Shown here in pieces: positions 5,370-55,769 of a stretch of 64,000 nucleotides of DNA. Numbering within the stretch: position 1 is the first letter of the stretch; each line of letters opens with the position of its first letter. The notes under the pieces are model-generated. The model was not told the DNA's origin, did not search any database, and saw only the letters and a list, made by a program, of their open reading frames with translations. A program made the position numbers and the translations under genes. Source of the DNA: an uncultured Pseudomonadales bacterium (lineage in GTDB: Bacteria > Patescibacteriota > Microgenomatia > UBA1400 > PJMF01); the NCBI GenBank assembly GCA_964457085.1, contig CAYWDM010000003.1, forward strand, positions 128,514-192,513, given 5' to 3'.

Positions 5370-5389
5370 TTAACAGGCCTCAATTTATC

Positions 5390-6706: not shown

Positions 6707-6744
6707 GGTGGGTGTTTACTAAGCCGTGATATTTTTTTGACAAG

Positions 6745-38544: not shown

Positions 38545-38555
38545 ATGAGGAACAT

Positions 38556-39617
38556 ATGACAATTTTTGATGTACTTGAACTACTGATTAGCCAAAAGGGC
38601 TCAGACGTGCATTTGGCAGTTGGTCATGCTCCAGTACTGCGTGTTGATGGTGAGTTGCGAAGTCTTGAAGGTGCTCCAGCACTAACTGCCGAGGCAGTGG
38701 AAATGTTGGTTAAACCGCTGATGTCTCAAGAGCAGCAGACTCTATTTAAAAAGAATCGTGAGATTGATTTTGGATATCAATATGGTGAGGCTGGCCGCTT
38801 TCGTATCAATGTGTATCATTCACTAAATAACATGGCCGCAGCACTGCGGTTGATTCCTCCAAAAATCCTTACCATTTCTGATCTGGGATTACCAGATGTT
38901 TTCAATCAGTTCACACAGTTCAATCAAGGTTTGATTTTGCTCACAGGTCCAACTGGTGAAGGTAAGTCTACTACTCTAGCAGCACTTATCAATGAAATAA
39001 ATCGAATTCGAGCAGATCATATTTTAACGATCGAAGATCCTGTCGAGTTTGTGCATAAGCCAATTAAGTCTTTTATTTCACAGCGAGAATTGAATCAAGA
39101 TACAAACGACTGGACTGTGGCACTAAAGTCTGCACTTCGTGAAGATCCTAATGTTGTTCTGGTTGGAGAAATGCGCGATTACGAGACGATAGCGGCAACA
39201 TTGACTGTGGCGGAGACTGGGCATTTGGTGATGGCTACACTTCACACAAGTACAGCAGCACAAACAATTGATCGTATCATTGATGTTTTTCCTGGTACCC
39301 AACAAGGCCAGATACGTCAGCAATTAGCAGCCACAATTAAAGTAGTGGTATCTCAGCGTTTAGTACCAAAAATTGGGGGTGGCCGAGTTGCAGCTTTTGA
39401 AATCATGATTGTGAACGATGCAATTCGCAATTTAATCCGTGAACAGAAAACATTTCAAATCGATAACGTGATTCAAACAGCTGCAGAATCTGGAATGTTT
39501 TTGATTGAAACATACTTGCTGGATTTAGTTGGTCGAGGGGTGATCACCAGAGAAACAGCTATAGCTAGTGCTTTTCGACCTAGGGAACTTCAGCGTATGA
39601 TGGGTATTGGAAAATAG
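38556..39617 (+). CDS. pilT: Type IV pilus retraction ATPase PilT
   Basis: 353 aa. Walker A GPTGEGKSTT. HILTIEDPVEF. PilT-type C-terminus AIRNLIRE. Confidence 0.9.
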   Translation: MTIFDVLELLISQKGSDVHLAVGHAPVLRVDGELRSLEGAPALTAEAVEMLVKPLMSQEQQTLFKKNREIDFGYQYGEAGRFRINVYHSLNNMAAALRLIPPKILTISDLGLPDVFNQFTQFNQGLILLTGPTGEGKSTTLAALINEINRIRADHILTIEDPVEFVHKPIKSFISQRELNQDTNDWTVALKSALREDPNVVLVGEMRDYETIAATLTVAETGHLVMATLHTSTAAQTIDRIIDVFPGTQQGQIRQQLAATIKVVVSQRLVPKIGGGRVAAFEIMIVNDAIRNLIREQKTFQIDNVIQTAAESGMFLIETYLLDLVGRGVITRETAIASAFRPRELQRMMGIGK

Positions 39618-39626
39618 GATTTTAAT

Positions 39627-40832
39627 ATGCCGATTTTTGAGTACGTTGCTCGCAATTCTCATCAAGAAAAAGTCACCGGTAAAGTTGAGTCAAAAGGTGT
39701 AGCTCAAGCCGTGACCATGCTCACCTCTCGTGGTTTATTTGTAATTCGAGTTAAGCCATACAACGAGGGATCAATTGAGTTTATTAACAAAATGCTCAAT
39801 CGAATTGGATTCGTGGAGATCGTGACCTTTACTCGTCAGATGGCTACCATGATTACTGCGGGGTTATCACTTTCCAAAGCATTGTCGATTCTTGAACAAC
39901 AAACAAATCCTGAAATGGGCAAAATGGTGAGTACATTGCTTAAAGATGTAGAGACAGGAAGTACTTTTTCCAGTTCATTAGTTAAATATCCCAAAGAATT
40001 CAGTCGTGTATATATTCAGCTAGTAAAAGCTGGTGAGTTAGGTGGTGTTTTGGATAAAGTACTAGAGCGGTTGGCCATTAACCTAGAAAAAGAAAAAGAG
40101 TTTCAATCAAAGACAAAAGGTGCCTTAATTTATCCTATTATCGTTATGTCGGCGATGGGTGTAGTGGCTACCATCATGATGATTTTTGTGGTGCCAAAAT
40201 TGACGAGTATGTACAAAGATTTTGGTGCCAAAATGCCTACTCCTACTTTGGTATTGATGTCGATGTCTGATTTTATGGTCAATAATTGGTGGGTAGTGGC
40301 AATTATTGGTGTGATTGCGTATTTGTCGTTTCAAAAATGGCATAAGACACGCAACGGCCAGATTCAATTTGATAAATTTGTGTTTAAACTGCCTGTTTTC
40401 GGTGATTTGAAGAAAAAGATTGTAATTACTGACTTTGCACGCACATTAGCATTGTTGCTCAGCACAGGCGTTTCCTTGTTGGAGGCAATGGATATCGTGG
40501 CTGAAGCTGCAGATAGTTTGATTTACCGTGAAGCATTTCAGGATGCCTCAAAGATGGTGGAAAAAGGAGACAGTTTGTCTCAGGCCATTGCTAAATATGG
40601 TGATATTTTTCCGCCAATTCTCAACCAAATGATTGCTGTGGGTGAAGAAACCGGTAAGCTTGACGATGTTTTGCAAAAACTATCAGTATTTTTTGAAGCT
40701 GAAACAGAGCAAGCAGTTAAGAATATGACCACCGCAATGGAGCCAATGATCATGGTAGTTTTAGGTCTTGGTGTCGGTCTCTTGGTGGTGGCAGTGATTT
40801 TGCCGATCTATAGCTTGACTAGCTCGTTTTAA
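39627..40832 (+). CDS. pilC: Type IV pilus inner-membrane platform protein PilC / GspF family
   Basis: 401 aa with two T2SSF repeats (GLSLSKAL..., GVSLLEAMDIV...) and three TM segments. Confidence 0.9.
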   Translation: MPIFEYVARNSHQEKVTGKVESKGVAQAVTMLTSRGLFVIRVKPYNEGSIEFINKMLNRIGFVEIVTFTRQMATMITAGLSLSKALSILEQQTNPEMGKMVSTLLKDVETGSTFSSSLVKYPKEFSRVYIQLVKAGELGGVLDKVLERLAINLEKEKEFQSKTKGALIYPIIVMSAMGVVATIMMIFVVPKLTSMYKDFGAKMPTPTLVLMSMSDFMVNNWWVVAIIGVIAYLSFQKWHKTRNGQIQFDKFVFKLPVFGDLKKKIVITDFARTLALLLSTGVSLLEAMDIVAEAADSLIYREAFQDASKMVEKGDSLSQAIAKYGDIFPPILNQMIAVGEETGKLDDVLQKLSVFFEAETEQAVKNMTTAMEPMIMVVLGLGVGLLVVAVILPIYSLTSSF

Positions 40833-40884
40833 TTGATGTATTCTGAACTGTAAGTAGTAGCACTCATACGTGGAACGTATATAT

Positions 40885-41538
40885 ATGACAAAGCCTCGCC
40901 CGTCTTTCATCCAGAGTCTTGGTTTTACCATGATCGAGCTCTTGATTGTTATTAGTATCTTGGGTTTTCTAGCTGTTGCTGTGTTAGCGGCTATTAATCC
41001 AATTGAGCAAATTAATCGTGGTAAAGACACTGGAAGTCGCTCAGATGCTGAGCAGCTACTGTCATCAATTGACCGATATTACGCTTCGAATGGGTACTAT
41101 CCTTGGACGATTGGTCCAACCGATGTGCAAACTGGTACTAGTGCAGCTGGTAATGCAGCCGCAGGTTCTGGTGTACAAGTACTTTTTAACACAACTGTGA
41201 ATCCATTAGATGAAACAGGTTGCTCATGGGCAGCTAAACTCACCTCTGGAGATGCTTTAGTAGCAGGTTGTAATGGTGCAAATGAGTTGAAGGCTACCTT
41301 CACCACTCGTGTAATGCATCCAACAAACTACAACACATTACAGGTCTATAACCGAGGTAATCAGGGAGACAGTACCTATATCTGTTTCCAGCCTAAGTCA
41401 AAGCAGTTCTTAGATGACGCAAAGAATCGATGTGTGGATGCAGCAGGAAGCGGTTTCCCAGCTGATATTGCCATCGGTGCGGCACTGTGTGTCGATGCGG
41501 TGACAACTGGCACTGACGTCTGGAGCTGCTTACCATAA
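40885..41538 (+). CDS. Type IV (major) pilin candidate
   Basis: Prepilin leader ending ...SLG, then FTMIELLIVISILGFLAV with Glu at +5. Located directly after pilC and before pilD. C-terminal Cys pairs. Confidence 0.8.
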   Translation: MTKPRPSFIQSLGFTMIELLIVISILGFLAVAVLAAINPIEQINRGKDTGSRSDAEQLLSSIDRYYASNGYYPWTIGPTDVQTGTSAAGNAAAGSGVQVLFNTTVNPLDETGCSWAAKLTSGDALVAGCNGANELKATFTTRVMHPTNYNTLQVYNRGNQGDSTYICFQPKSKQFLDDAKNRCVDAAGSGFPADIAIGAALCVDAVTTGTDVWSCLP

Positions 41539-41553
41539 AGGTAAGATACAGCC

Positions 41554-42369
41554 GTGTTGTTTGTCTCATATTTGTTAGTTGGCTTCGCCCTGTTCTACTT
41601 TGGTGCGATAATAGGCAGTTTCGTAAATGTCTTTATCTACCGAACAGTACAGGGCGAAGATTGGGTAAATGGCAGATCTCGTTGTGAAGTCTGCCACCGT
41701 AAAATTCATTGGTACGATAATTTTCCGATACTTTCTTATTTGGTTTTAAATGGCAAATGTCGCTATTGCCACACTGGCATTTCGCCAATTCATCCTATTG
41801 TTGAGGGACTGATGGGCAGCCTGTTTGTTTGGTGGTATTTTATTGGCACTTTATTTTTTAGGTTAACTGAACAGCCTTACTCTGCGATACAACCTGCCTT
41901 TTGGTTGTTGGTTGGCATATTGTTGTTGGTGATTTGTGTAGCAGATTTACTGTATCTAATAATTCCTGATACTGCAGTGATATCACTGATGGTTTTGACA
42001 CTTACCTACCGGATAAGCTTAGCTGTTGGTGGCCAGATGCAGTGGCGAGATTTCGGCATGATGCTGGTTGGAATGGTAGGTCTTGTTGGTTTCTTCCTTT
42101 TTCTCTACTTTGTGACCAAGAAAAAAGGTTTTGGACTGGGTGATGTCAAACTTGCAGTGCCGCTTGCTTTGTTACTTGGGTGGCCAAAAATTGTGGTGGG
42201 CATATTTGCTGCATTTATATTTGGAGCACTCGTTGGTGGCGTACTATTATGGAAGAAACTAAGAACATTAAATAATGTATTGCCCTTTGCACCTTTTTTA
42301 GTAATCGGAGCATTGTTTTCACTGTTGTTCGGAGAGCAGATTTGGCAAATGTATTTCAGTCTGCTTTAA
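41554..42369 (+). CDS. pilD: Prepilin peptidase (A24 family)
   Basis: N-terminal CxxC...CxxC zinc motif (CEVCHRKIHWYDNFPILSYLVLNGKCRYCH). Catalytic GLGDVKL. Confidence 0.9.
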   Translation: MLFVSYLLVGFALFYFGAIIGSFVNVFIYRTVQGEDWVNGRSRCEVCHRKIHWYDNFPILSYLVLNGKCRYCHTGISPIHPIVEGLMGSLFVWWYFIGTLFFRLTEQPYSAIQPAFWLLVGILLLVICVADLLYLIIPDTAVISLMVLTLTYRISLAVGGQMQWRDFGMMLVGMVGLVGFFLFLYFVTKKKGFGLGDVKLAVPLALLLGWPKIVVGIFAAFIFGALVGGVLLWKKLRTLNNVLPFAPFLVIGALFSLLFGEQIWQMYFSLL

Positions 42370-42442
42370 TCAATAGTATGGATTGTGTGACTAAAAACAT
42401 CGTCAATGCTGTTTTGAGATCACATGATGCTGATAGCTGCCT

Positions 42443-43456
42443 ATGAGAATTCTAAAAGCACTATTTTTTTCCTTTGTAATCTTGTTGGTGACACTTATTG
42501 TTGTGGTGTATGGGGCTCGTGAAGTTTTGCTAATCGGCTCAACTTGGCTCATTTCTAGCCGATACAATCAAGTAGTGCAGTCAGTTGCTGCTGGTGATCA
42601 CAGACAAGAATGCATGAAACTTGGAGTGTTTGGAGGTGAAGCGTTCCCCCAACTTCGTTTCGTATCTAGCACCGAGTACTATGCCGAAGCAGTGTGCGGC
42701 ACATTGAGTGAGAGTGCATTAGTCATCACAAAATACAAACTGTGGCCACTGGTAACAAAGACCACTGGAGACTCTGGATTAACTGATCAAAAGAAACAAG
42801 CGGTGGTGGCATTGGAAGTTCTAGGACGAGTTGCCTCAGTAGAACAAGACGAATTTGGGAATACACACACCGTTTGGAGAAAAGGTAAGCTCATCTCGAC
42901 TGGTGCTGGACCAGTGACTAATTGTGGTGGATATGGCACAACCTGTTGTATTGAAGGTGAAGAGCAAGGCATTGGAGATCAGATTAAGGGTGCTCTAGAT
43001 TGTCCCAAAACTTGTTATGTTGCCTGTTATAGTCGGCCTGTAATCTTGGCGTTTAACTCTAACCCGTTTTATGACTATGAGAGCCGAATTTTGACTGTTA
43101 AGCGTGGTCAGACGATTGATTTTAGTTATGTGATTAGTGAATCACAACGCGATGTATTTGCTGATGCTCGTTTGAAGGAAAACACCGATCCACTTGCTAT
43201 TTTATTGTCGTTATCCAAACAACTTTTAAATACCAAAAAAATTGAGGCTGAAAAAGAGGCACTGAGGCAAGTGACACTTGATTTTGGCGATGGTGAAACC
43301 ACGACTTTAAGTAAGCTGCAAGATACCGGAAGCCACAGCTATACCTGTGCTCGAGAGCTTTGCAGATACACTGCAAATTTGTCAGCAAAAAATTACTATG
43401 GTGCCCAGACATTAGCTGGATATCTCAGCACGATCACTATTAATGTGGTACCGTAA
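42443..43456 (+). CDS. Membrane-anchored Cys-containing hypothetical protein within the pilus operon
   Basis: N-terminal TM anchor plus an extracytoplasmic domain with conserved Cys (CGGYGTTCCIEG, CPKTCYVACY). Confidence 0.5.
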   Translation: MRILKALFFSFVILLVTLIVVVYGAREVLLIGSTWLISSRYNQVVQSVAAGDHRQECMKLGVFGGEAFPQLRFVSSTEYYAEAVCGTLSESALVITKYKLWPLVTKTTGDSGLTDQKKQAVVALEVLGRVASVEQDEFGNTHTVWRKGKLISTGAGPVTNCGGYGTTCCIEGEEQGIGDQIKGALDCPKTCYVACYSRPVILAFNSNPFYDYESRILTVKRGQTIDFSYVISESQRDVFADARLKENTDPLAILLSLSKQLLNTKKIEAEKEALRQVTLDFGDGETTTLSKLQDTGSHSYTCARELCRYTANLSAKNYYGAQTLAGYLSTITINVVP

Positions 43457-43464
43457 AGGAAGCT

Positions 43465-43944
43465 ATGTTTGTACACACTCCCCTATTTCAACAACAAAGA
43501 CGACGGAAACAATTTGGTTTTAGTTTGTTAGAACTTTTAGTGGTTGTTTCTATTATTGGAATTTTGATTGCAATTGCTGCTGCTGCTTATTCCACAGCAC
43601 AGAAAAAAGGTCGTGATGCCAAACGTCGTGGAGATGTGGCTGCGATGCAAAAAGCCTTTGAACAATATAATGCAGCAAATAATGGTGCATATGACAGTGT
43701 GGGCACTAATTGTAGTGGTATGGTAAGTCTATCTGGTTCTGATTTTCTACCAGGCGGTTTGCCAGTTGATTCAAAAGGAAACCCCTATACCTGTTTCAAT
43801 ACAAGCTCTACTTACTGCATCTGCTCAACCGTACTTGAGGGTGGTGGTGGTAACACGCTCGCATTGCCAACCGATGCTGATTGTGCCGGAATTGGGGCTC
43901 CCGCAGCAGTAAATACGTATTTTTGTACCAAAAATTTGCAATAG
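43465..43944 (+). CDS. Type IV pilin-like protein
   Basis: Prepilin motif ...KQFG, then FSLLELLVVVSIIGIL. Confidence 0.75.
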   Translation: MFVHTPLFQQQRRRKQFGFSLLELLVVVSIIGILIAIAAAAYSTAQKKGRDAKRRGDVAAMQKAFEQYNAANNGAYDSVGTNCSGMVSLSGSDFLPGGLPVDSKGNPYTCFNTSSTYCICSTVLEGGGGNTLALPTDADCAGIGAPAAVNTYFCTKNLQ

Positions 43945-43947
43945 CAT

Positions 43948-44376
43948 ATGCTAAAAATAATGCAGAATTTACAATTAAAAACTCGTAGACGTCAGGGTGG
44001 TTTTTCAATGATTGAGCTGTTGGTGGTGGCGACGTTAATAATCATTTTGACCATGATTGGACTGGTGAGTTATAGCAAGACATTGGTGAATAGTCGTAAT
44101 GCACGTCGCAAAGCTGATTTAGAGGTGATGCGACAAGCACTCGTTTTATATAAACTTGATAATGGTCGCTATCCTAATCAACAAGGTGTCCATGCTGAAG
44201 CAGTGACCATCGGCAGCAGCTATCTGCAAACCGCACCGCTAGATCCAAAAAATGATGCTACTTATTTTTATCAATACGATGGGACAGGAACTTGCACAGT
44301 AGCTGGCTGTACCACCTTCACTTTAACTGCAAGGCTAGAATCAAGTGCAACCGTGTACTCAGTAAATAATCCATAA
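43948..44376 (+). CDS. Type IV pilin-like protein (PulG-like)
   Basis: Prepilin motif ...RQGG, then FSMIELLVVATLI. Confidence 0.75.
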   Translation: MLKIMQNLQLKTRRRQGGFSMIELLVVATLIIILTMIGLVSYSKTLVNSRNARRKADLEVMRQALVLYKLDNGRYPNQQGVHAEAVTIGSSYLQTAPLDPKNDATYFYQYDGTGTCTVAGCTTFTLTARLESSATVYSVNNP

Positions 44377-44384
44377 AGTATCGT

Positions 44385-44927
44385 ATGGAACAGCACTACT
44401 TAACGAACTGGAGGTCTGTTCATAATTCAAAAAGTGGTTTTACTTTGATTGAAATGTTAGTTGTCGTAGCAATCGCAACTCTATTTGTTGGTGGCGGTTT
44501 AGCGGGATTCATGAGTTTTAACTCACGCCAAAAAGCTATAAATGGAGCCAAAGAATTGGAGCAGATAATTAAAATTGCAGAAACAAAAACTCAATCAGGA
44601 GTGGTCGGCGTTTGTAATCAACTTGAGGCATATGAAATCACTTTTGACACGGCCGTTGATCCTGTGATTGTTTCGCTACAAGAGGTGTGTGCCACTGGCG
44701 AGGTAGTAACTCCTGTTGCAACAGAATATCCCCTGTCCCAGGGAGTTTCGATGTCGTTTAGTCCTGCCACCACGTATATTCGTTTTAAAATCTTAAGCGG
44801 GGGGCTGCTGTTTAGCAGTGGTGCCAGCAGCATTCAAGCACAATTTGAAGATGCAAATAACCCAGGTCAAGTATATGCAGTTACCATTTCCGAAGGAGGC
44901 GATGTCAGTGAAGGCGATTGGCTCTAA
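44385..44927 (+). CDS. Type IV pilin-like protein
   Basis: Prepilin motif ...SKSG, then FTLIEMLVVVAIATLF. Confidence 0.75.
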   Translation: MEQHYLTNWRSVHNSKSGFTLIEMLVVVAIATLFVGGGLAGFMSFNSRQKAINGAKELEQIIKIAETKTQSGVVGVCNQLEAYEITFDTAVDPVIVSLQEVCATGEVVTPVATEYPLSQGVSMSFSPATTYIRFKILSGGLLFSSGASSIQAQFEDANNPGQVYAVTISEGGDVSEGDWL

Positions 44928-45405
44928 ATTTCATCGAGGAACTTTCTTCCACTCTCAATTGGGGTTTGGAATCATGGAGGTGGTCATCTCGATTGGTATT
45001 GTCGGTTTAATTTTGACCGCAATTTCTAGTGGTCTGATTTTTTCACTTAAAACTAATGCAGAAACCAAGTTTCGAGGTATTGCACTGAGTAAAAATCAAG
45101 AAGTTTTTGAAGTTATTCGTCGGGAACGCGTGATCAGAGGTTGGGATAGTTTTTTACAACTATACGGTGGGGGTGTTGCCGGGACATATACTTATTGTCT
45201 TAATTCCGCAAATATACTGGATCACGCCAATTTCCCTCCTGCAGCTGCCGCCTGTGTTGATACGGTTGATTGGGAAGGAAATGACTACATTCGTGAGCTA
45301 GTAGTTGATACAACCACTGTTGGCCAAATCGGTTTTACCTCGACGGTATACTGGCAGGGTCGTGACAAGCAAATTCAGCTCTCACAGACACTCAAGAGTT
45401 GGTAA
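44902..45405 (+). CDS. Minor pilin-like protein (start uncertain; overlaps the previous gene)
   Basis: ...HSQLG then FGIMEVVISIGIVGLILT. Prepilin-like, with Glu at +5. Confidence 0.45.
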   Translation: MSVKAIGSKFHRGTFFHSQLGFGIMEVVISIGIVGLILTAISSGLIFSLKTNAETKFRGIALSKNQEVFEVIRRERVIRGWDSFLQLYGGGVAGTYTYCLNSANILDHANFPPAAAACVDTVDWEGNDYIRELVVDTTTVGQIGFTSTVYWQGRDKQIQLSQTLKSW

Positions 45406-45465: not shown

Positions 45466-46020
45466 TTACAGATTTTGGTTTCTCACTGAAACACCAGAAC
45501 GGAACTCACGGATGATGGTTTCTGAGTCGTTACCAGCACCTTCTCCTCGTTTCAGTTTGAAGTAAATCTCAACGTAATTTTGTTTGTTTTCACCCTCATA
45601 GCAGTTGAAGGTGATGGTGTTAGCAGGATCTAATGCCATTGAATCCGAACTGAGATAGTAAATTTTTCCGGTTGTGGTCGAAGTTGAAGCAATTCGACCA
45701 TTATCTGCTCCAAGTATAGTGATGCCGCCATCGCCATTTTCGAGCTCAAGTCCAGAGATGATGCCAGCCACACAGGTGGTGTTGATTTTACGAGCATTAC
45801 GAATAATAAAACTCATTCGATCGATTGCTCGCTCTCCCTCACTCTTGGCTTTTTGCTCAAAGTTGGATTTAGCTGAACTTATCACAAATGACATAAAAAA
45901 ACTTGAGACAGTGGTCAAAAGTATAACTGAGATTGTGGTTACAACCAACAACTCAATTAGGGTAAACCCAGATTGATTCGAGTATTCAGAGAACCTACTT
46001 TGTGAGACATGCTGACGCAT
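45466..46020 (-). CDS. Type IV pilin / pseudopilin-like protein
   Basis: ...NQSG then FTLIELLVVTTISVILLT. Last gene of a minus-strand operon with the Cys-rich adhesin candidate. Confidence 0.7.
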   Translation of the reverse strand: MRQHVSQSRFSEYSNQSGFTLIELLVVTTISVILLTTVSSFFMSFVISSAKSNFEQKAKSEGERAIDRMSFIIRNARKINTTCVAGIISGLELENGDGGITILGADNGRIASTSTTTGKIYYLSSDSMALDPANTITFNCYEGENKQNYVEIYFKLKRGEGAGNDSETIIREFRSGVSVRNQNL

Positions 46021-46034
46021 TTTTGGTACGTCCT

Positions 46035-47894
46035 TTATCGCTGTGGTGCTATCTCTTTCCAGTTATATTGTGCAGTCTTCATCTCGGTTGGATAGTTGTC
46101 AACGAAATCAGGCCTGAAAATGAAGACCTCTGAGGGGCTGACACTATTCATGGTTTTGCCGAGTAAGCCATCGTCATAGTTACGTAGTAGGTTAATACCA
46201 TTCCCAGTAGCTGCACTATCAAGTGCAACAAAGGTGCCTGATCCAATAAACTTACGATCAATGGTTGCGACATTGCTGTCACTGTTGATAGTGATTTGTC
46301 CATCAGCAACGAACACCCCTTCTAGATTAGCGGTTACATTACTTGGAGTGACGGTATTGCTGTTGTGTCCTACTGCAGCGTCAATGATGATGTTGTTTCG
46401 AACAACGAACATCAGGAAACCACCATTGGCAACTGAAGTAAGCTTCGAGGCATCTAGAGCACTACTATTGGAAAATTGTAGACTGCCGGGAATAAAGACG
46501 ATGACCTTTTTGTCAGCAGGGATGCTGAGTGGTATTGCAGCATCTGCTTTGTCGATGACTAAGTTTCCAGCGTTATACAAATAGAGACCAGTGACGCCAG
46601 CAGCCTGAGCTGTGATCTTGGAGTTAAGATCTGTCAGACTACTTGTAGTGATGAGCTGACGGCTGACATTACCATAGAAGAAATCATAGTTTTCAGCACT
46701 GGGAGCGACACCAATGGCATAGGCTCCAAGAGAGGTTGTTCGACTTGTTGCCGAGTGTACGTATGCATCACTGTCATCCTTAGTAGTTTTGACCGTACCG
46801 GTGTTGCCTACTGCGATGAATCCGCCATAGTTAGAGTTGGTAGCCGCAGTGATGACGCCACTCTCACAGTTGGGATCAGTGTCACAGGTAGCGACTGGAA
46901 CCTTTGACTTAACTTCATAGCGAGCGTAAATATTGCCGCCAACAGTCTGCCACCATGGATCAGCTAAGTTGTTTTCTTTAACAAAGAAGCTAACGGTGTC
47001 ATCAGCAGTGATACCACTATATTCACATAGATAGTCTTGACCAGCGGTTAATGGACAACCACAAGTGTATGCCACTGCTTGACCTGGAGCTGGGGTTGGG
47101 AGGGCTAAGCGGACACGATAATCTGTTGCTCCTTTAACAAGGTTGGTAACGATGGTGAAGGTGGAACCAAGAATGGTGCCTGGGGAGATAACTCCACTAC
47201 TATCTTTAGTGGCACTCACCGCTGCATTAGCAACAATTTGTGGAGTTGGTGCCAGTCCGATACGAGTACACATACCCCCAATGGCTTGGATAGTGCCATC
47301 ATCATTGTCGTAGTAAATGTTGCCAACAATCACAGGTGTGGGAGTTGGAGTTGGTGTGTTGGTTGGTGTGGGCGTAGGAGTATTTGTTGGTGTCGGTGTG
47401 TTGGTTGGCGTAGATGTGGGAGTGCTTGTTGGAGGAATAGGTGTTGGGCTGGCACCAATTGGAGGATCACCAGTTGGATTTGGTGGTGTAGTTGGGCCGA
47501 CTCCATCCCAAGCACAGTTAAGGGTGGCGGTGCCTCGATTCGTTTCACACGTAGTCATAAAAAGCACACAGTTGCAGAGATTTCCAGAGTAGATAAGGGT
47601 ACTGCATGTTCCAGAACAACTTTCATCACTTTGCGTGCAGTTGCATACACTCTCATATGTCCCCTGACAGGTAGCGGATGGAACAGTACATGAACAGTTA
47701 CCAGGACCACAGTCGCAGCTCTCATTTGAGACACCGGTCGTGGCACAGTAACCCGCACCTTCTCCCCATCTACCGCAATCAGAAATCTGATTGCCACCGG
47801 GAGATCCAGCAACGCAATCTGCACTTACAGTAGAAGTGGCTACGACAAAAAAAACTGCTGCAATAAAAAAAGTTTTGTAAGAGTTAATGGACAT
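46035..47894 (-). CDS. Large secreted Cys-rich protein with Pro/Thr repeat linker (candidate pilus-associated adhesin)
   Basis: Signal peptide, then an N-terminal domain of about 100 aa with about 20 Cys, then a (PT)n/TPTN linker, then about 430 aa of beta-rich domain. Co-oriented with, and 14 bp from, the pilin-like gene. Confidence 0.6.
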   Translation of the reverse strand: MSINSYKTFFIAAVFFVVATSTVSADCVAGSPGGNQISDCGRWGEGAGYCATTGVSNESCDCGPGNCSCTVPSATCQGTYESVCNCTQSDESCSGTCSTLIYSGNLCNCVLFMTTCETNRGTATLNCAWDGVGPTTPPNPTGDPPIGASPTPIPPTSTPTSTPTNTPTPTNTPTPTPTNTPTPTPTPVIVGNIYYDNDDGTIQAIGGMCTRIGLAPTPQIVANAAVSATKDSSGVISPGTILGSTFTIVTNLVKGATDYRVRLALPTPAPGQAVAYTCGCPLTAGQDYLCEYSGITADDTVSFFVKENNLADPWWQTVGGNIYARYEVKSKVPVATCDTDPNCESGVITAATNSNYGGFIAVGNTGTVKTTKDDSDAYVHSATSRTTSLGAYAIGVAPSAENYDFFYGNVSRQLITTSSLTDLNSKITAQAAGVTGLYLYNAGNLVIDKADAAIPLSIPADKKVIVFIPGSLQFSNSSALDASKLTSVANGGFLMFVVRNNIIIDAAVGHNSNTVTPSNVTANLEGVFVADGQITINSDSNVATIDRKFIGSGTFVALDSAATGNGINLLRNYDDGLLGKTMNSVSPSEVFIFRPDFVDNYPTEMKTAQYNWKEIAPQR

Positions 47895-47896
47895 AT

Positions 47897-48520
47897 CTAT
47901 TTATAAGTGAGTAATGTAAAGCTAGCTGCCAAGAAAATCGGTTTGCCTGATGTCATTTTTGGTAGGTCTTTAGGATCCTCGCTTTCAGCAAAGCGTGCCG
48001 GCCACTCAGTGCCAAAACTTTGATTGATTTTCTGGAAAAATTTTGAGGTTTTAATATCCTCGGGGTTGTAATTGCTTGTTTCTGCATATAACTGTACTGC
48101 AGGATCTTCTCTATCAAGAACCTTTGAAATAAGTTTGTCTATGTAGCTGTCACCAGGTAGTTCTATAGCACTTACCACAGTGTTAATTACTAGAAATTGG
48201 CGCAACTCTTGGTTGTACAGTGCTAATGGAACCTGTACTGTCTCGATGGTGCCGTCTTTTTTGCGATACACACAAGATGTTTTTCGCACCATAACCAGCC
48301 CGTTTTCGAGTTCTTCAAAGGTATTTTCAATTTGAGTAGATGCAAGTCGACACTCTAGATAGTAGCTCTGTATTTTATTGGCTAATCTAATTGCTGGTTT
48401 CTCTGAAATTGAAGGGGCAATGTTCTCGAGTCGGCGCTTTTTTATTACTCGTGTGAGTAAAATCATGCCTACAATAGCGAGTACTGCTAGAACTAAAAAC
48501 AAGAGTATATTTTTCTTCAC
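47897..48520 (-). CDS. Membrane-anchored hypothetical protein (paralog of the C-terminal domain of the next gene)
   Basis: N-terminal TM (ILLFLVLAVLAIVGMILL). The C-terminal region aligns with the 48596-49783 product (CVYRKKDGTIETVQVPLALYNQELRQF versus CFFVDAAGKTQTVTMPLAFYNRDTNQF). Confidence 0.5.
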   Translation of the reverse strand: MKKNILLFLVLAVLAIVGMILLTRVIKKRRLENIAPSISEKPAIRLANKIQSYYLECRLASTQIENTFEELENGLVMVRKTSCVYRKKDGTIETVQVPLALYNQELRQFLVINTVVSAIELPGDSYIDKLISKVLDREDPAVQLYAETSNYNPEDIKTSKFFQKINQSFGTEWPARFAESEDPKDLPKMTSGKPIFLAASFTLLTYK

Positions 48521-48595
48521 AAATCTAGTGTACAGTTCTTGTTGAGAATCTACAAGTAAGCTATTTGGTGCTTAGTGCTTATTTTTGAATCAAAT

Positions 48596-49783
48596 TTATT
48601 CACCTCTTTTAAAGTCAGCATATGCGGGGATGACGAAGTTCTCGGCATTTGGCTTATCTGGGAATTCGTCTACAACACCCTGATCGTAATAAATGTCACT
48701 TGGAGTTCCAAATGAGTCGACCGCGGCTTGCATAAATGCTTTGTCGTATTCACTACCACCTTTTGTTTTACCCATACCAAACTGCATGATTAGATATTTA
48801 CCAGTTGGGCTTATTTTACTCAGTAGCCCTCTTAGTTGGCCATCGATAAATGCATCAGTTGGTTTGCCCTCAGATGGGGCGGCTTGGGCCATGATACGGA
48901 ATTGATTGGTATCTCTATTATAGAATGCCAACGGCATGGTAACAGTTTGTGTTTTGCCAGCTGCGTCAACAAAAAAACAGTCTGCTACTCTGAGAATGTC
49001 AAGATTGGCAAATTGAAAGTTGACAGTTCTAACGCTATCCAGTTCGACGGCACAATATGTTCCCCGTCTTTCATTTTTATTTACGATTTTTGTGGGGAAT
49101 TGTTGTTCACTTCCACTCGATGCAACTATTCCCTCTAGGTATGCCGGGTCAATTACAATTTCTGGGATCGCAGTTGGTGGCACCTCTGTTGGTGGTATCT
49201 CAGTTGGTGATATTGGCGTCCAAGACAGTGTGGGAGTGGGAACATCTTGGGTACCATTAGCTATGTCAGTTCCAGCTTGTCCCGTTGCAGTAGCAGCAGC
49301 TTCTGTATTACTAAATGCTTTGGCAGGAGGTGCCCCGCATGCAGACACAACCATTGAAAAACAAACTAGCAGAGTCAGGATTGTCAGTAGCTTGTTCCCT
49401 GAAAATTCAAAGCGATTGGGATGTTTTAATTTAAACTTAATTTTATCAAAAATAGCAGCAACGACTTGATTTATGTCAATGCTTTCAACAGTGGCGGGAG
49501 TGATTTCTCTTTCAAGAGCTGCAACAAATAGTTCTTCATCTTCGTTCATGCCAAGCTTTTCGGCTTGCAATTCAACCCAAGCACGCACCACTGCAGTTTG
49601 GTCACCGATAAAAGCTCTTGCTTTTTCCACCAACGCTCTACCCTGTTCTTGGATACTGCCACTCATCTCTGCGATTTTTGCAGCAAATCGTGACTTTTCG
49701 TTTGTTTCTGACATGTTTTTTGTTTGTGTCCACACATATTTTGATGGACAATTACTGTGGATTTTATCACTAAATATAACCAA
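48596..49783 (-). CDS. Bitopic membrane protein with an approximately 130-aa cytoplasmic N-terminal domain and an extracytoplasmic paralogous domain
   Basis: Internal TM (LLTILTLLVCFSMVVSA). C-terminal 150 aa homologous to the preceding gene product. Confidence 0.5.
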   Translation of the reverse strand: MVIFSDKIHSNCPSKYVWTQTKNMSETNEKSRFAAKIAEMSGSIQEQGRALVEKARAFIGDQTAVVRAWVELQAEKLGMNEDEELFVAALEREITPATVESIDINQVVAAIFDKIKFKLKHPNRFEFSGNKLLTILTLLVCFSMVVSACGAPPAKAFSNTEAAATATGQAGTDIANGTQDVPTPTLSWTPISPTEIPPTEVPPTAIPEIVIDPAYLEGIVASSGSEQQFPTKIVNKNERRGTYCAVELDSVRTVNFQFANLDILRVADCFFVDAAGKTQTVTMPLAFYNRDTNQFRIMAQAAPSEGKPTDAFIDGQLRGLLSKISPTGKYLIMQFGMGKTKGGSEYDKAFMQAAVDSFGTPSDIYYDQGVVDEFPDKPNAENFVIPAYADFKRGE

Positions 49784-50255: not shown

Positions 50256-50738
50256 ATGAGTTCTATGTCTGATAATTCAGGATCAGTAAATGTGTTGACC
50301 AGTCAGCAACCAGTGGTTGATGATGAGTTGGTGCAAACTGAGGTTGATCCCAGACATCTCAAACGTGCCGCCTTGATGCAGGCGTTGTTCGCTGCCACTT
50401 TTGCAGGCCCTGATGAACAAGCAATTGAAGATGAGGAGTTGCAGCAAAAAGTACATACTATTTTTGAACAGTTGCCCACAATTGACGCCAAAATCAAGGA
50501 ACATGCCCCTGAGCGACCGCTCAGCGAGGTTAATCAAGTTGATTTGGCAATTCTCCGCTTGACAGTTTTCGAGGCGGAGCATAAAAAGACACCTATAAAG
50601 GTCTTGATTAACGAAGCAGTCGAGCTTGCCAAGCAATATGGCACAGAAAGCTCGCCTAAATTCGTCAATGGAGTCCTTGGTAAATTATTGGTATTAACTG
50701 AGGAAGAACATGTCGGTTCCAGCGAAACAACAACTTAA
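50256..50738 (+). CDS. nusB: Transcription antitermination factor NusB
   Basis: [14 protein letters not shown]..., [11 protein letters not shown]..., [33 protein letters not shown] is a NusB signature. Confidence 0.8.
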
Positions 50739-50991
50739 GTCACTCGAGCAACTTCGAAATTTATTGGCCGATATTACCGGCAATGAACTTGATGAAATTC
50801 ACCCCCAATCAAATTTGGAGGATGATCTCGGTATTAATCTAGCAGACGAGTTTCCTCGCCTACTCTCTCAAGTTAACACTGAGTTTGAGATTGAGCTTGA
50901 ACTAGATGCGGTGAAAGATGAAATGGAAGTAGCCGGTGAAACTGTGGCCGAATTAGCCAAATTAATTGACGATGAGAGTGAGCTTGGATAA
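50710..50991 (+). CDS. Small acidic ACP-like protein lacking the phosphopantetheine-attachment Ser (start uncertain)
   Basis: [13 protein letters not shown] aligns to the ACP motif DLGADSLDTVEL with Ser replaced by Leu. Located immediately upstream of rnc, as acpP is in Firmicutes. Confidence 0.4.
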
Positions 50992-51017
50992 GCATACGAC
51001 ACTTGCGTAAGATATTT

Positions 51018-51695
51018 ATGGCGTTACCAACTTTTAAAAATTCTCAACTGCTTATAACTGCCTTATCTCATCGCAGTTCTCTAAACGAAAAAACTGCTTC
51101 TGGAACTACCGCTTTGGAATCAAATGAGCGATTGGAGTTTTTAGGTGATGCAGTACTTGAATTGGCTGTTACCGAGTATCTGTTCGCCATGTTTCCCGCG
51201 GAGCCTGAAGGTAAATTAACTGCCTATCGCAGTGCTTTGGTGAAAACCACCACACTTGCCGAGTTATCAAAAGAATTAAAGCTAGGTGATCAGATGTATA
51301 TGAGCAAGGGTGAGGAAGCTACTGGCGGTCGTAAAAATGAGAGTTTATTGGCCGACACTTTTGAAGCAGTGCTCGGAGCTTTGTATCTAGATCAAGGATA
51401 TGCTGTGGCAGTTGAGTTTCTGACTGCTAATTTATATCCCAAATTTGCCGATATTTTAGAGAACAAGCTATATAAAGATCACAAAAGTCTACTGCAGGAA
51501 GTAGTTCAGGCCAAAGGCTTACCTACTCCAGCATATGAGGTGGTAAAAGAGGTTGGTCCAGATCATGATAAGGAGTTTACAGTAGTAGTTAAAGTAGCCG
51601 AGATCGTCAAGGGTACTGGTGCGGGTAAGAATAAACAACAAGCCCAACAACAAGCAGCACTGGCAGCTTTGAAGGAATTTGGCGAATTATCTTGA
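51018..51695 (+). CDS. rnc: Ribonuclease III
   Basis: RNase III signature ERLEFLGDAVLELAVTEYLF, and a C-terminal dsRBD. Confidence 0.95.
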   Translation: MALPTFKNSQLLITALSHRSSLNEKTASGTTALESNERLEFLGDAVLELAVTEYLFAMFPAEPEGKLTAYRSALVKTTTLAELSKELKLGDQMYMSKGEEATGGRKNESLLADTFEAVLGALYLDQGYAVAVEFLTANLYPKFADILENKLYKDHKSLLQEVVQAKGLPTPAYEVVKEVGPDHDKEFTVVVKVAEIVKGTGAGKNKQQAQQQAALAALKEFGELS

Positions 51696-51727
51696 TAAAT
51701 CATTAGAAGCAAGATACAATCCCCCCT

Positions 51728-52123
51728 ATGTTGAAAATCAAATTAGCTCGTTTTGGTAAAAAGAAACAACCCGCCTATCGAATAGTGGTTAATGAGGCCA
51801 AATCCAAGCGCGACGGTCAATACGTTGCTATGGTTGGTCGTTATGCCCCTACCGAGAGTCCCAAGATTCTCGAGGTCGATATGCCAGCTTATGAAGCATG
51901 GTTGAAAAAAGGTGCTCAGCCCACCGAGACAGTGGCTAGTTTAGTCACTCGCTTAAAATCAGGAAATCCATTCCCACCAAAGAAATCAAAGCCAAACAAA
52001 AAGGCTATGATTCGTGCAGCTGCCGAGGCTGAAGCAAAAGCTGCTGAAGTAGTTGCTCCAGCAGAGCCAGTAGTCGCCGAGGTTGCAGCTGTGGAATCAG
52101 CTGAAACTGAAGTAACTGCTTAA
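51728..52123 (+). CDS. rpsP: 30S ribosomal protein S16, with an Ala/Glu-rich C-terminal extension
   Basis: MLKIKLARFGKKKQPAYRIVVNEAKSKRDGQYVAMVGRYAP. Confidence 0.9.
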   Translation: MLKIKLARFGKKKQPAYRIVVNEAKSKRDGQYVAMVGRYAPTESPKILEVDMPAYEAWLKKGAQPTETVASLVTRLKSGNPFPPKKSKPNKKAMIRAAAEAEAKAAEVVAPAEPVVAEVAAVESAETEVTA

Positions 52124-52576: not shown

Positions 52577-53353
52577 TTACTCACTTGGAATTCTCTCAAT
52601 TGAAAATGGATCAGATAGTCCCCCACCCTCAACATCATTTTGAGGCTCTGGTTCAGCAATGGTAAAACCTTGAATGGTTTGGAATATTTCTTTTTCTCGT
52701 TGTGAGATCTTTGGCAAGTTAGAGCCTAAGGTGGTTTTAATCTGCTGTGTAAAGTAGTGTGTTTGTAGTGTTAGTTGAGCAGTGGTGAGTATGACACCGG
52801 ATTGTTTTGAGGTGTTTTGGCTCAATGCAATTTTTGTGATGGTAGTGATGGGTGAGATTTGTTCAATCAAAACCATGAAGTCTTGGATGTTATTTAATTG
52901 ACCAATGACTGTGATAGTAATCTCGATGCTGTCGAAGTTAACTGATTGTTGTCTTGCAGTTTGTTTGAGTTGAGCACTCGAGGTGGCAATCTCTCCAGGA
53001 TTAATCTGTAGCTCTGCAACCGCGACTTCTGAGATGGCGGCCACTGAATTAATTCCTGTCATTAGTTCTAGTAATGGCTTTTTTGAAGGTAAGATGGCAT
53101 CAATCTTGTCTGATTGAGCAAATTCTGGCGATAATTTAATTTGCTCTAGTTCCTTATATTTTCCAGTAATTTTATCCAATTCTTGTTGTTCTTTAGCGAG
53201 TTTTGCATTTGCTGTCTTGATGGTATTTATCTGTGGAATAATTGCTAAAATTAAAATTAATAAGCTGCCAAAAAATATTGCTATAGCCATCAGAAGTTGC
53301 TTACGAGTGAAGACAAATAATCGCCAGTAAAGTTCGTTATTTTTATTTGGCAT
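52577..53353 (-). CDS. PilO-like bitopic pilus assembly protein
   Basis: N-terminal TM, a coiled-coil and a periplasmic domain. Last gene of the pilM-pilN-pilO-like operon. Confidence 0.45.
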   Translation of the reverse strand: MPNKNNELYWRLFVFTRKQLLMAIAIFFGSLLILILAIIPQINTIKTANAKLAKEQQELDKITGKYKELEQIKLSPEFAQSDKIDAILPSKKPLLELMTGINSVAAISEVAVAELQINPGEIATSSAQLKQTARQQSVNFDSIEITITVIGQLNNIQDFMVLIEQISPITTITKIALSQNTSKQSGVILTTAQLTLQTHYFTQQIKTTLGSNLPKISQREKEIFQTIQGFTIAEPEPQNDVEGGGLSDPFSIERIPSE

Positions 53354-53933
53354 TAGTCCCAGTCTTGCTGTCAGATGCGCTGTTTCCAGTTTGCTTTTTT
53401 AATTCAACTGTTAGCTTCATTGCATAGTTGCCAACTTCTGTCCGCCGAATATTGCTTCTATTTAGTGATGAAAAATTTGTTTTCACTTCATCAGAGTCAA
53501 GTTTTTCGACTAGTTTTTCAAGTTGAAAAATACTAGTGCTATCTACTGTGAGCGACAGAATTTGAGCATCACCATCATAGTTAACGCCACCAATAAAGCC
53601 AGAATCAGTGAATAAATTGCTTAGATAGTTAATTGCTTGCTGCTTGTTGTTGCGTTTCTCAAAAATCTCAGCAATGGTTTTTAATTTATTGCTAAACAGT
53701 AGGTATTGGGCCTCTACTGTTTGGTTGGTCATGATTGATTGTTTGGTTTCGTTCTGTTTTTTTACCACACCTTTCAGTGTTGAGCTTAGGTAAATGTTAA
53801 AACCAATTAAAGCAAGCAAGGTTATAACAGTGACGCCAAACACAATTAGTGCAATCAAAAATAGTCGACGATCGTAGACTATGTTTTTCTGGTAAATGCC
53901 TCCTCGTTTTCCGAGAAAGTTAATGCTCTGCAC
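53343..53933 (-). CDS. PilN-like fimbrial assembly protein
   Basis: MQSINFLGKRGG... N-terminus followed by a TM. This matches the conserved PilN INLLP-like start. Confidence 0.5.
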   Translation of the reverse strand: MQSINFLGKRGGIYQKNIVYDRRLFLIALIVFGVTVITLLALIGFNIYLSSTLKGVVKKQNETKQSIMTNQTVEAQYLLFSNKLKTIAEIFEKRNNKQQAINYLSNLFTDSGFIGGVNYDGDAQILSLTVDSTSIFQLEKLVEKLDSDEVKTNFSSLNRSNIRRTEVGNYAMKLTVELKKQTGNSASDSKTGTNAK

Positions 53934-53934
53934 G

Positions 53935-54942
53935 CTACAGCTCCCTCATCAGTAACCCCATACAAATGGTAAAAGCCTGACGATTGGTGGTGGGTATTTC
54001 ACCCTTAATATCGTAGAAAGGATCCGCAAGTAAGACTTCAGCATTAAGTTTTTCGGTGAGATATTGTGTCAATCCAGGAAGTTGAGAAGTGCCACCAGAC
54101 AGCACAATTCTTCGCACATCTCCATTTGGATTCTCGCTTTGAAAGTAACGGATGGATTTGCTGATCTCGCCCACCAGACTATCAATTGCTGGAAGCAGTG
54201 CTTGGCGGACTTTACCCTCAAACTGAGTGCCGTCCAAACCATACTGCCGTTTATATTGCTCTGCTTGCTCTGGGTCGAGACCAATTTCTTGCTCGAGTGC
54301 TTTGCTCAGTGCCTTGCCGCCGAGTGGATTTGTAAAGACAAAACCCAATTCTGCTTGGTCAACAACACCCAGATCTGTGGTGCTGGCACCAAGGTTAGCG
54401 ACTAATGTTGGCGGTTCTGTGGTAGCAAGATCAAGTGATCTAATAACTGAGAAAATTTGTGTTTCGAGTAATACAGGTTCAACGCCAATGCCGAGAAACA
54501 TATTGGTAAATCGTTCAACTACGGTTTTTCGAGCACCTACCAACAGCACCTTCATCGGTTTCTGTTTATCGGTTTTTGCAGGACGAAATAGCACTTGGTA
54601 CTGCAGTGCAAGCTCTTCTTTGGGAATTGGAATATATTGCTCAGCTTGCCACTCAATTGCAGATGCTAGTTCTGCGTCAGTCAAAGGTGGAATTGAGATT
54701 ACTTTGCTGGAAATAGCAGACTCTGGCAAGCTCAGACGGATGTTGGTCCGAGGAAGCTTATTATCATTGATGATCGAGAAAATGACTTCACCAAGTTTGG
54801 TAGCTTGTTCATCATCATTTGGCAACGAAAAACCGAGGTCATTTGGAGCCTCGACTACTCGAGAGATGGTTGGTTTTTTGGCACTTACTCCGCTGACGAG
54901 TTTTAAGCTGTATGCACCAATGTCGATAGCTAGGGCAGGCAT
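53935..54942 (-). CDS. pilM: Type IV pilus assembly protein PilM (actin-like ATPase)
   Basis: ALAIDIGAYSLKLV (phosphate-1), VANLGASTTDLGVV, and LSGGTSQLPGL are actin/HSP70-fold motifs typical of PilM. Confidence 0.85.
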   Translation of the reverse strand: MPALAIDIGAYSLKLVSGVSAKKPTISRVVEAPNDLGFSLPNDDEQATKLGEVIFSIINDNKLPRTNIRLSLPESAISSKVISIPPLTDAELASAIEWQAEQYIPIPKEELALQYQVLFRPAKTDKQKPMKVLLVGARKTVVERFTNMFLGIGVEPVLLETQIFSVIRSLDLATTEPPTLVANLGASTTDLGVVDQAELGFVFTNPLGGKALSKALEQEIGLDPEQAEQYKRQYGLDGTQFEGKVRQALLPAIDSLVGEISKSIRYFQSENPNGDVRRIVLSGGTSQLPGLTQYLTEKLNAEVLLADPFYDIKGEIPTTNRQAFTICMGLLMREL

Positions 54943-54962
54943 ATCTATGTTTTTTTTGTTAA

Positions 54963-55769
54963 TTACTTTGTGATCGATGATCCGCTGTATAAGGTGTAGT
55001 CCATGAATGATGGTGGCGTGGATAGCGTGCGTCTAACTTCAATGGCTTTGGCTTGACTCACGCCAGTAACATCTTGTGCTTTGGAAGTAACAGTAAATTG
55101 AGCTCTATTGATGGACGGACCCTCAGCCATAATATCTGTACTGTTGAACAGTGGTTCTATACGAACAAAATAGTCGTTTGCTTGTAAACTCAGCTGATAT
55201 TTAAACTTATAGGGACTGTCTCCAACAACTGTGCTGGCGTAGTTAAAGTTTTTACCGCTGCTACAACCTTCTGATTCAGGTCCTTTCACCGCCTCAAAGC
55301 GACTTGTGATGTTTCCTAGCCCATCTTGGTTGTAAATGGAAATAATTAAAGCAGCTGGATTTTGTGAACAGGGTACAAATGACCAGTTGATATCAATTGG
55401 AGCTGTTGAGTTAACTGACAATTCAGCAGCTGAACTTTGATCAAGGTGTGTTTTTAGGATGTTATCTTGTGAAATTTGTAGATTTACGCTAGCGTTTGGA
55501 TCGGTAATGTCTTGGTTGGCAACGGCAGACAACTCAACTTGGTTTTGCTCAAGACTTTGGATGTCAGCCAGTGCTTTTTCCACACCAGTTTCCGCAGCTC
55601 CAAAAATCTTAGCAGATTCTTCTTGCTGTGCAGTAATTTCAGCTTGTTGTGAGGTTCGAACCATTAATGACAGACCAATAGTCAGTACTACCACAGAAAG
55701 CAAGACTACGATTAAGCCAGCCTGACCAGACTGAGAATGAACTTGAGAACGAAGATAATTGCTAGTCAT
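54963..55769 (-). CDS. PilX-N-like putative minor pilin / pilus assembly protein
   Basis: N-terminus SGQAGLIVVLLSVVVLTIGLSLMVRTSQQAEITAQQEESAKIFGAAETGVEKALADI resembles a PilX_N domain. First gene of the operon with pilMNO. Confidence 0.45.
   Translation of the reverse strand: MTSNYLRSQVHSQSGQAGLIVVLLSVVVLTIGLSLMVRTSQQAEITAQQEESAKIFGAAETGVEKALADIQSLEQNQVELSAVANQDITDPNASVNLQISQDNILKTHLDQSSAAELSVNSTAPIDINWSFVPCSQNPAALIISIYNQDGLGNITSRFEAVKGPESEGCSSGKNFNYASTVVGDSPYKFKYQLSLQANDYFVRIEPLFNSTDIMAEGPSINRAQFTVTSKAQDVTGVSQAKAIEVRRTLSTPPSFMDYTLYSGSSITK

Follow-up and report, generated by a model that had tools for sequence, protein, structure and literature searches.

A stretch of 64,000 nucleotides (nt) of contig CAYWDM010000003.1, here called the window, carries on its minus strand a cassette of four genes, encoding two membrane-anchored paralogs, a secreted modular protein of 619 amino acids (aa) and a 184-aa type IV minor pilin. 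The cassette is located inside a complete type IV pilus system, containing PilB/T/C/D, six pilins, PilMNO and a PilX_N-like protein. On balance, we favor the reading that the region is an accessory adhesin cassette on the type IV pilus gene cluster of a Candidate Phyla Radiation (CPR) bacterium, and that the 619-aa protein would serve as a pilus-associated modular adhesin for host attachment. What is known of host recognition and attachment by ultrasmall CPR bacteria comes largely from a few Saccharibacteria in culture.

Gene order of the cassette and its conservation

In the order of the minus strand, the cassette contains the larger membrane-anchored paralog (48596-49783 (-), a 395-aa open reading frame (ORF) with a TTG start in the ORF list), the small membrane-anchored paralog (47897-48520 (-), 207 aa, GTG start), the Sec-secreted 619-aa protein that is the candidate pilus-associated adhesin (46035-47894 (-), ATG start), and the minor pilin (45466-46020 (-), 184 aa, ATG start). 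The four ORFs are separated by 75, 2 and 14 nt, respectively. An earlier interpretation of the same letters (the sequence-only reading) had described four co-oriented ORFs with 2-75-bp gaps at the distal end of a pilus locus; a mechanical ORF list gives identical coordinates, and a complete type IV pilus cluster adjoins them. The 207-aa and 619-aa genes are probably translationally coupled, because the stop of the former lies 2 nt before the start of the latter, and operon status is inferred from gene spacing and conserved order only. An Rfam scan of the window gave three tRNAs only, none of them within the cassette region.

A species-level scan for homologs of the 619-aa protein, taking one genome per species, returned 48 loci. 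In about 40 of the 48 genomes, a homolog of the 184-aa pilin lies directly downstream of the 619-aa-family gene, often overlapping it or spaced by 0-20 nt, and these genomes span 25-75% protein identity. The same order as in the window is found in about 40 loci: family gene, pilin, four convergent pilins, a 337-aa protein, PilD, a major-type pilin, PilC, PilT and PilB. The pairing of the large protein with the pilin, as proposed in the sequence-only reading, is strongly conserved, and since the four-gene arrangement recurs in dozens of independent genomes, it is not due to chance.

The 337-aa pilus-cluster protein was used as an independent anchor, with an 8-sequence alignment as the query against metagenome contigs, yielding 16 informative loci. 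The 184-aa-type pilin was present in all 16, and a 619-aa-family gene was present at the distal end in 12, in ten of which it adjoins the pilin. The 184-aa protein is accordingly assigned as a predicted core minor pilin, because it is kept in all 16 loci, even those without the cassette. The three genes upstream of it appear to be an accessory insertion beside this core pilin, because three related lineages keep the pilin cluster with no cassette adjoining the pilin; the cassette thus does not behave as a fixed part of the pilus.

The 48 loci all bear CPR labels (Pacebacteria, Microgenomatus, Microgenomates group, and unresolved 'Paceibacterota'), besides several evidently wrong labels, and the named relatives as a whole also include Beckwithbacteria; in NCBI, 'Paceibacterota' is a synonym of the whole phylum Minisyncoccota. 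Saccharibacteria are named in no title among the 48 loci. The parallel with Saccharibacteria drawn in the sequence-only reading is not supported as an origin of the window, as the named relatives are Microgenomates-type CPR and none are Saccharibacteria. Many of the contigs with a CPR-type pilus cluster (L011, L014, L016, L020 and others) bear the title 'uncultured Pseudomonadales bacterium', and single contigs are titled 'TM6' and 'Chloroflexi'; they appear to come from mislabeled bins.

The 184-aa minor pilin

The 184-aa protein has a class III signal, in which the prepilin site ...NQSG is followed by FTLIELLVVTTISVILL, starting with FTLIELLVV, and the protein contains two invariant Cys residues. 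Its N-terminus matches Pfam N_methyl (E=6e-8, above the cut-off) and TIGR02532 (26.1 bits, against a cut-off of 16.3), in agreement with its earlier description as a prepilin-type protein. Other NCBIfam matches (HpsC, GspH, GspJ) were all far under the cut-off, and a profile of the family searched against PDB sequences matched N-terminal helices alone. The type IV pilin N-terminal motif was matched in all 40 members of the family, and a prepilin peptidase and the assembly machinery are encoded in the same genome. Several homologs have Ala in place of Gly at position -1 of the prepilin site, for example QKA before FTLLELL (L016, L019, L020, L025, L027, L030, L032, L033, L041, L044).

Architecture and predicted structure of the 619-aa protein

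The N-terminus of the 619-aa protein is of the Sec type, consisting of MSINSYKTFFIAAVFFVVATSTVSA followed by DC, with K7, a hydrophobic core and a predicted cleavage site between VSA and DC, and it contains no G/F/E5 motif. After it comes a variable N-terminal module (residues 27-130, 47505-47816 (-)), which contains 16 Cys residues and four CxC motifs (CDC, CSC and two CNC), matches no known family and is predicted with low AlphaFold2 confidence. This is followed by a Pro/Thr-rich (P/T-rich) linker (residues 131-189, 47328-47504 (-)), a middle all-beta region with a conserved YxCxCP...CxY motif (residues 190-306, 46977-47327 (-)), and a conserved C-terminal domain (residues 307-619, 46038-46976 (-)), which extends from a PWWQ start to the C-terminus of the protein and defines the family. 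The domain ends in a conserved tail (residues 594-619, 46038-46115 (-)), RPDFVDNYPTEMKTAQYNWKEIAPQR, containing W612 and E614. The signal peptide, Cys-rich module, P/T linker and beta-rich C-terminal part had all been recognized in the sequence-only reading; its count of about 20 Cys and its CxxC motifs were not reproduced, since the Cys-rich module contains 16 Cys and no CxxC.

An AlphaFold2 monomer model, built from a 36-sequence alignment, has a mean predicted local distance difference test score (pLDDT) of 72, with values of 80-97 for residues 180-609. The head, the linker and the last ten residues (610-619, including W612 and E614) are below 50. A Foldseek search with the model gave no match at E<=1e-3 in PDB or BFVD, and no propeller was found among the top matches. 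The only matches were weak ones to Ig-like (immunoglobulin-like) domains over about 130-160 columns (the shaft pilin SpaA and Ole e 1). They most likely reflect the middle beta region, and in the model residues 190-306 probably form an Ig-like sandwich.

The 619-aa protein family

An initial word-indexed search returned a handful of relatives, and the set was widened by profile searches. An exhaustive HMMER search over 1.84 billion representatives gave 3513 proteins at E<=0.001, 2816 at <=1e-10 and 1129 at <=1e-30; representatives of the family were taken as clusters at 50% identity (>1100). When the four cassette proteins and the family profiles were searched against Pfam, NCBIfam and PDB sequences, the pilin N-terminal motif alone exceeded a threshold, and neither the 619-aa protein nor its family profiles did; the only source name seen was 'hypothetical protein', and no description of the family was found in the literature searched.

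The approximately 310-aa C-terminal domain ends within 8 residues (<=8) of the C-terminus in 176 of 179 representatives, over protein lengths of 205-1603 aa. Its invariant positions are mostly G, F, W and P, and the invariant polar ones are Q, D, R and an RPD motif. The terminal peptide follows the motif [YF]RPD[FL]xxNxPxx[ML]Kx5W[QR]E[VTI][NA], in which the W is 95% and the E 97% conserved. The N-terminal parts differ among members and include CBM_4_9, F5/8-type-C with thrombospondin type 1 (TSP1), VWA, Big_7 or NedA-like galactose-binding modules. Most are Cys-rich (median Cys content of the N-terminal regions, 5.6%), and about two thirds of the members have a hydrophobic N-terminus. Between the window protein and its closest relatives, identity is 34-37% in the head, compared with 74-82% in the rest of the protein. 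This points to the N-terminal Cys module as the variable, fast-evolving part and to the C-terminal domain as the conserved part, the reverse of the C-terminal hypervariability that the sequence-only reading suggested looking for.

The TSP1 repeat is a domain typical of animals and apicomplexans. In CPR family members, such repeats (WSxCSxxCGGG) occur beside an F5/8-type-C domain in L034:3730-6423 and P0078, confirmed with Pfam in the former and precomputed for the latter. In L038:6618-8999 the TSP1 motif is visible in the sequence, yet there is no Pfam match at E<=0.01. Tandem duplicates of the family gene ahead of the pilin are present in L006, L009, L011, L014, L015, L017, L028, L036, L065, L068 and L074. 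The second copies inspected (L006, L009, L017) are about 440-450 aa long, and the conserved Trp of the tail is replaced (FYLRELQP, FNIREVQP).

The two membrane-anchored paralogs

The two proteins encoded upstream are paralogous, as had been noted from the letters alone (395- versus 207-aa protein, BLASTP E=2e-9, 27% identity over 118 aa). The 207-aa protein contains an N-terminal signal-anchor helix (residues ~5-24) and an extracytoplasmic domain of about 170 aa. The 395-aa protein contains a cytoplasmic helical N-region of about 130 aa, a transmembrane helix closed by a lipobox-like VSAC, a linker rich in P/T, and a C-terminal domain paralogous to the 207-aa protein; the hidden Markov model (HMM) of the family covers its residues 79-392 (E=1.6e-34). 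The longest reading of this ORF gives 395 aa from the TTG, and an in-frame ATG at 49714 (MSETNEK...) gives 372 aa. Two observations make the ATG the more probable start: the TTG extension contains a promoter-like site, and the closest positional homolog has 373 aa.

BLASTP of both proteins against all loci gave no matches at 1e-4, even in the closest locus. Pairwise BLASTP among positional homologs and an iterative HMM then recovered the 207-aa family, with 32 members in the loci examined, so the initial negative result reflects fast divergence and not absence. All 32 members lie upstream of, and adjoin, 619-aa-family genes, and 25 of the 54 loci have a member in the directly upstream position. 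Two paralogs are present in five loci besides the window. In L008, the two (4893-6305 and 6361-6945) are 50% identical over 133 residues, compared with 27% in the window, which points to recurrent duplication of the pair or to gene conversion between its two members.

A lipobox-like [LVI][ASV][AGS]C closing the transmembrane helix, together with a P/T linker, was found in 16 of 18 positional homologs of the larger paralog. In the window, the VSAC lies about 130-150 residues from the N-terminus, and there is no nearer canonical in-frame start. The motif lies 90-230 residues from the N-terminus in the window and in L001, L007, L008, L011, L014, L017, L019, L020, L031, L039, L044 and L047, and in L030, L033 and L043 it lies within an ordinary N-terminal signal peptide. 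The paralogs with the motif far from the N-terminus would be either lipoproteins with an unusual cytoplasmic pre-domain or proteins with non-canonical start codons.

The Pam pili of CPR bacteria, which are donor-strand-exchange filaments (bioRxiv 10.64898/2026.03.03.709456), were also considered for the paralogs. They were set aside by their described context, since the neighborhood differs: the conserved Pam neighborhood contains an ATP synthase, a tail-fiber-like gene and transport genes (bioRxiv 10.64898/2026.03.03.709456).

Surrounding type IV pilus genes

The core pilus operon (35542-43456 (+)) encodes PilB, PilT, PilC, a 222-aa pilin, PilD and the conserved 337-aa Cys-rich membrane protein. 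It is followed by four pilin genes convergent with the cassette (43465-45405 (+)), encoding GspG-, GspH- and PilV/GspI-like proteins of 159, 142 and 180 aa and an ORF listed as 195 aa. On the other side of the cassette are the genes for PilO-like, PilN-like and PilM proteins and a 268-aa PilX_N-like (GspK-type) protein (52577-55769 (-)). PilB, PilM and the PilO-like protein were identified by direct scan of the window proteins; the PilT and PilC calls are based on ORF translations and the precomputed Pfam families of their L001 homologs. The PilD ORF (41554-42369 (+)) aligns with the PilD positions across related loci, and in the related locus L001 its homolog is assigned to the A24 prepilin peptidase Pfam families. 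No secretin gene was found among the pilus genes of the window, which is in keeping with the published picture of CPR bacteria (PMC6744442), in which PilQ is absent and extracytoplasmic disulfide oxidoreductases are enriched (PMC6744442).

The pilus genes are split by housekeeping genes. Between the cassette and the block encoding PilO, PilN, PilM and the PilX_N-like protein are nusB, a small acyl carrier protein-like gene, rnc and rpsP (50256-52123 (+)), and such interleaving of pilus and housekeeping genes is also present in the related loci L001, L006 and L007.

Three further features of the pilus genes were observed. PilB (35542-38544 (+)) is a 1000-aa protein, in which MshEN spans residues 482-567 and the T2SSE ATPase domain starts at residue ~603; its first ~480 residues form an extension of low complexity with many Q, P, G and N residues, and the homolog in the closest locus has 1028 aa. 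The 337-aa protein (42443-43456 (+)), encoded between pilD and the minor pilins, contains an N-terminal transmembrane helix, a DCPKSCY motif, a C-terminus with weak likeness to PKD, and ten invariant Cys residues, among them a CC pair; almost every related pilus cluster has it at this position. The 195-aa ORF (GTG start, 44818-45405 (+)) overlaps the preceding pilin gene by 110 nt, and its pilin motif GFGIMEVV occurs only from residue ~47; its true start is probably further downstream.

Proposed function and alternatives

We propose that the 184-aa protein would be processed by PilD and take its place as a core minor pilin in the tip or initiation complex. The 619-aa protein would be exported by Sec and then oxidized to a disulfide-rich form, consisting of a variable Cys-rich binding head, a P/T stalk, a beta-sandwich, and the conserved ~310-aa C-terminal domain with its terminal peptide. 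The C-terminal domain and tail may dock the protein on the minor-pilin tip complex, with the neighboring pilin as the likeliest partner. Extension of the pilus would then present the variable head to the host surface, and its retraction would draw the two cells toward each other. The modular-adhesin layout that the sequence-only reading had seen in the large protein fits this architecture, and lectin-type modules are present in relatives.

We infer docking from the strictly C-terminal position of the domain, its conserved unstructured tail, its adjacency to a minor pilin, and the published precedent of C-terminal-strand docking (PMC13533445). The terminal W-x-E is 95-97% conserved yet has a pLDDT of <50, which is the behavior that would be expected of a peptide that folds only on a partner. 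The two membrane-anchored paralogs may retain the secreted protein at the membrane, or act as its chaperones there, until loading takes place. Such a helper role is suggested by their exclusive and tightly spaced upstream position, and by the lack of an outer membrane that would retain a secreted protein.

Several results weigh against this proposal. Promoter and terminator scans of the region gave site numbers no higher than in shuffled sequence. A single-sequence model of the 184-aa pilin had a pLDDT of 48.7 and was confident for helix 21-66 only. The head module of the window protein contains no binding domain recognizable by Pfam or NCBIfam, and the C-terminal domain resembles neither a known tip adhesin nor any solved or viral structure (PDB, BFVD); this large conserved domain could alternatively be an enzyme. 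None of 162 complete family sequences has a prepilin-type N-terminus that would indicate a pilin fusion. About ten family members are encoded at loci without pilus genes, still with a small N-terminally anchored protein upstream, and in three distinct lineages (L067, L069/70, L071) the pilin gene is directly next to the PilX_N-like gene and pilMNO, and the cassette is missing beside it.

The last three of these results are also what would be expected if the 619-aa protein were a pilus-independent surface adhesin or envelope protein, held by its membrane-anchored neighbors or by the cell wall, and encoded near pilus genes through co-regulation of surface functions. At the roughly ten loci lacking a pilin or any other pilus gene, it is the 207-aa-type protein that accompanies the family members. 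We consider this explanation unlikely, because the family gene lies immediately upstream of the same pilin family in about 40 genomes across 25-75% identity, and the conserved unstructured C-terminal peptide would need a partner.

Less probable still is a role of the 619-aa protein as a cargo or effector that the pilus machinery exports or presents, perhaps as an enzyme acting on the host envelope and not as an adhesin. Pilus-exported cargo has parallels in TcpF of Vibrio cholerae and CofJ of enterotoxigenic Escherichia coli. The Sec signal, the lack of a pilin helix and the location in a pilus locus would all fit such a role, as would the invariant polar residues of the ~310-aa domain (Q, D, R and the RPD motif); the carbohydrate-binding modules of some members are typical of glycan-active enzymes too. 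However, no enzyme family was matched in Pfam, NCBIfam, PDB sequences or Foldseek, the invariant positions are mostly the structural residues G, F, W and P, and the domain, which ends in a conserved peptide, invariably occupies the C-terminus. That the protein is mainly an assembly-priming factor, analogous to PilY1 in its licensing role and with an N-terminal region lacking a specific binding function, would fit the gene's position next to a core minor pilin and a C-terminal logic like the beta-strand licensing of PilC/PilY1 (PMC13533445), but seems very improbable, as the cassette is missing beside the pilin in three lineages that retain the full pilus cluster, and as exchangeable specificity better accounts for the tandem duplicates and for the additional copies elsewhere, whose N-terminal modules are very different.

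Returning to the pilus-associated adhesin, we tentatively suggest a more specific possibility, which we hold with less confidence than the adhesin role as such. The C-terminal domain and its W-x-E tail may be a CPR-specific docking device unrelated to PilY1, which mounts interchangeable host-binding heads (Cys-rich, lectin-type, VWA) on the tip of a monoderm pilus and is loaded by a dedicated membrane-anchored partner family, that of the 207- and 395-aa proteins; tandem duplicates and additional copies at other places in the genome would supply alternative tips. If so, host range in Microgenomates-type CPR bacteria would depend on the head as one of its main determinants.

The analysis defines a large unannotated CPR-specific family, of more than 1100 clusters at 50% identity, which matches no Pfam or NCBIfam family above threshold and lacks a solved homolog. 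Gene order ties the family to the type IV pilus, and a constant anchor carrying exchangeable heads, some of them lectin-like, is the architecture that would be expected of a host-binding tip protein. The family yields candidate host-range determinants and a testable docking motif, as well as a genomic marker for metagenomes, namely the gene immediately upstream of that for the distal minor pilin.

Comparison with known systems

Some family members have weak matches to Pfam DUF7305 (PF23981), around ...VVFVxGNLTIxD.... They were found in 5 of 36 members (best E=1.1e-5) and 3 of 51 (best E=1.2e-6), and no match was found in the window protein itself. The three matches with listed scores have 12-17 bits, below the gathering cut-off of 27, and align about 30-70 of the 185 profile positions; the better matches are known as E-values only. 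No literature on DUF7305 was found.

Comparison with the PilC/PilY1 proteins of Neisseria, Pseudomonas and Myxococcus shows that both are large non-pilin Sec proteins encoded beside minor pilin genes, with a variable N-terminal region, a conserved C-terminal region and a conserved extreme C-terminus. In PilC/PilY1, the C-terminal peptide is a beta-strand that is added to a PilK-type pilin (PMC13533445). In contrast, the 619-aa gene is upstream of a single pilin and not after pilV-W-X, the organism here has no outer membrane or PilQ, and some related pilus clusters do without the cassette. The PilY1/PilC Pfam domain (Neisseria_PilC/PilY1) was not found at E<=1 in the window protein, at E<=5 in 36 C-terminal domains, or in 60 full-length relatives. 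Because the PilY1 domain and the propeller, the defining test, are missing, the cassette should not be classed with the PilC/PilY1 family. The resemblance to PilC/PilY1 drawn in the sequence-only reading does not extend to a relationship, given that there is also no Foldseek match at E<=1e-3. The family, computationally defined throughout, would resemble PilC/PilY1-type tip adhesins in function, without being a member.

A second comparison is with PilX1 and PilX2 of the Saccharibacteria (Nanosynbacter lyticus TM7x), which are large proteins of type IV pilus loci that are not PilD substrates and have been proposed as tip adhesins, PilX2 being needed for efficient host binding (PMC11623550). Like the 619-aa protein, they are CPR proteins, the largest in their pilus loci, and lack a PilD signal; a glycan ligand is suspected (PMC11623550). 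They are set apart by their description as pilin-like lollipops with a jelly-roll or a seven-bladed propeller, whereas the 619-aa protein has no N-terminal pilin helix and its conserved domain is another, unannotated one. By analogy, the Saccharibacteria precedent may back the kind of function proposed here, and not homology.

MshQ of the MSHA pilus and CpaL/TadG of the Tad pilus are likewise large tip-associated proteins unrelated to PilY1, with predicted C-terminal-strand docking (PMC13533445). No sequence relation to either was detected, and CpaL has its own pilin-like domain, whereas the 619-aa family has none. PilC/PilY1 docks, and MshQ and CpaL are predicted to dock, via a C-terminal beta-strand added to a minor pilin (PMC13533445), and MshQ and CpaL show that different folds are able to fill the tip role.

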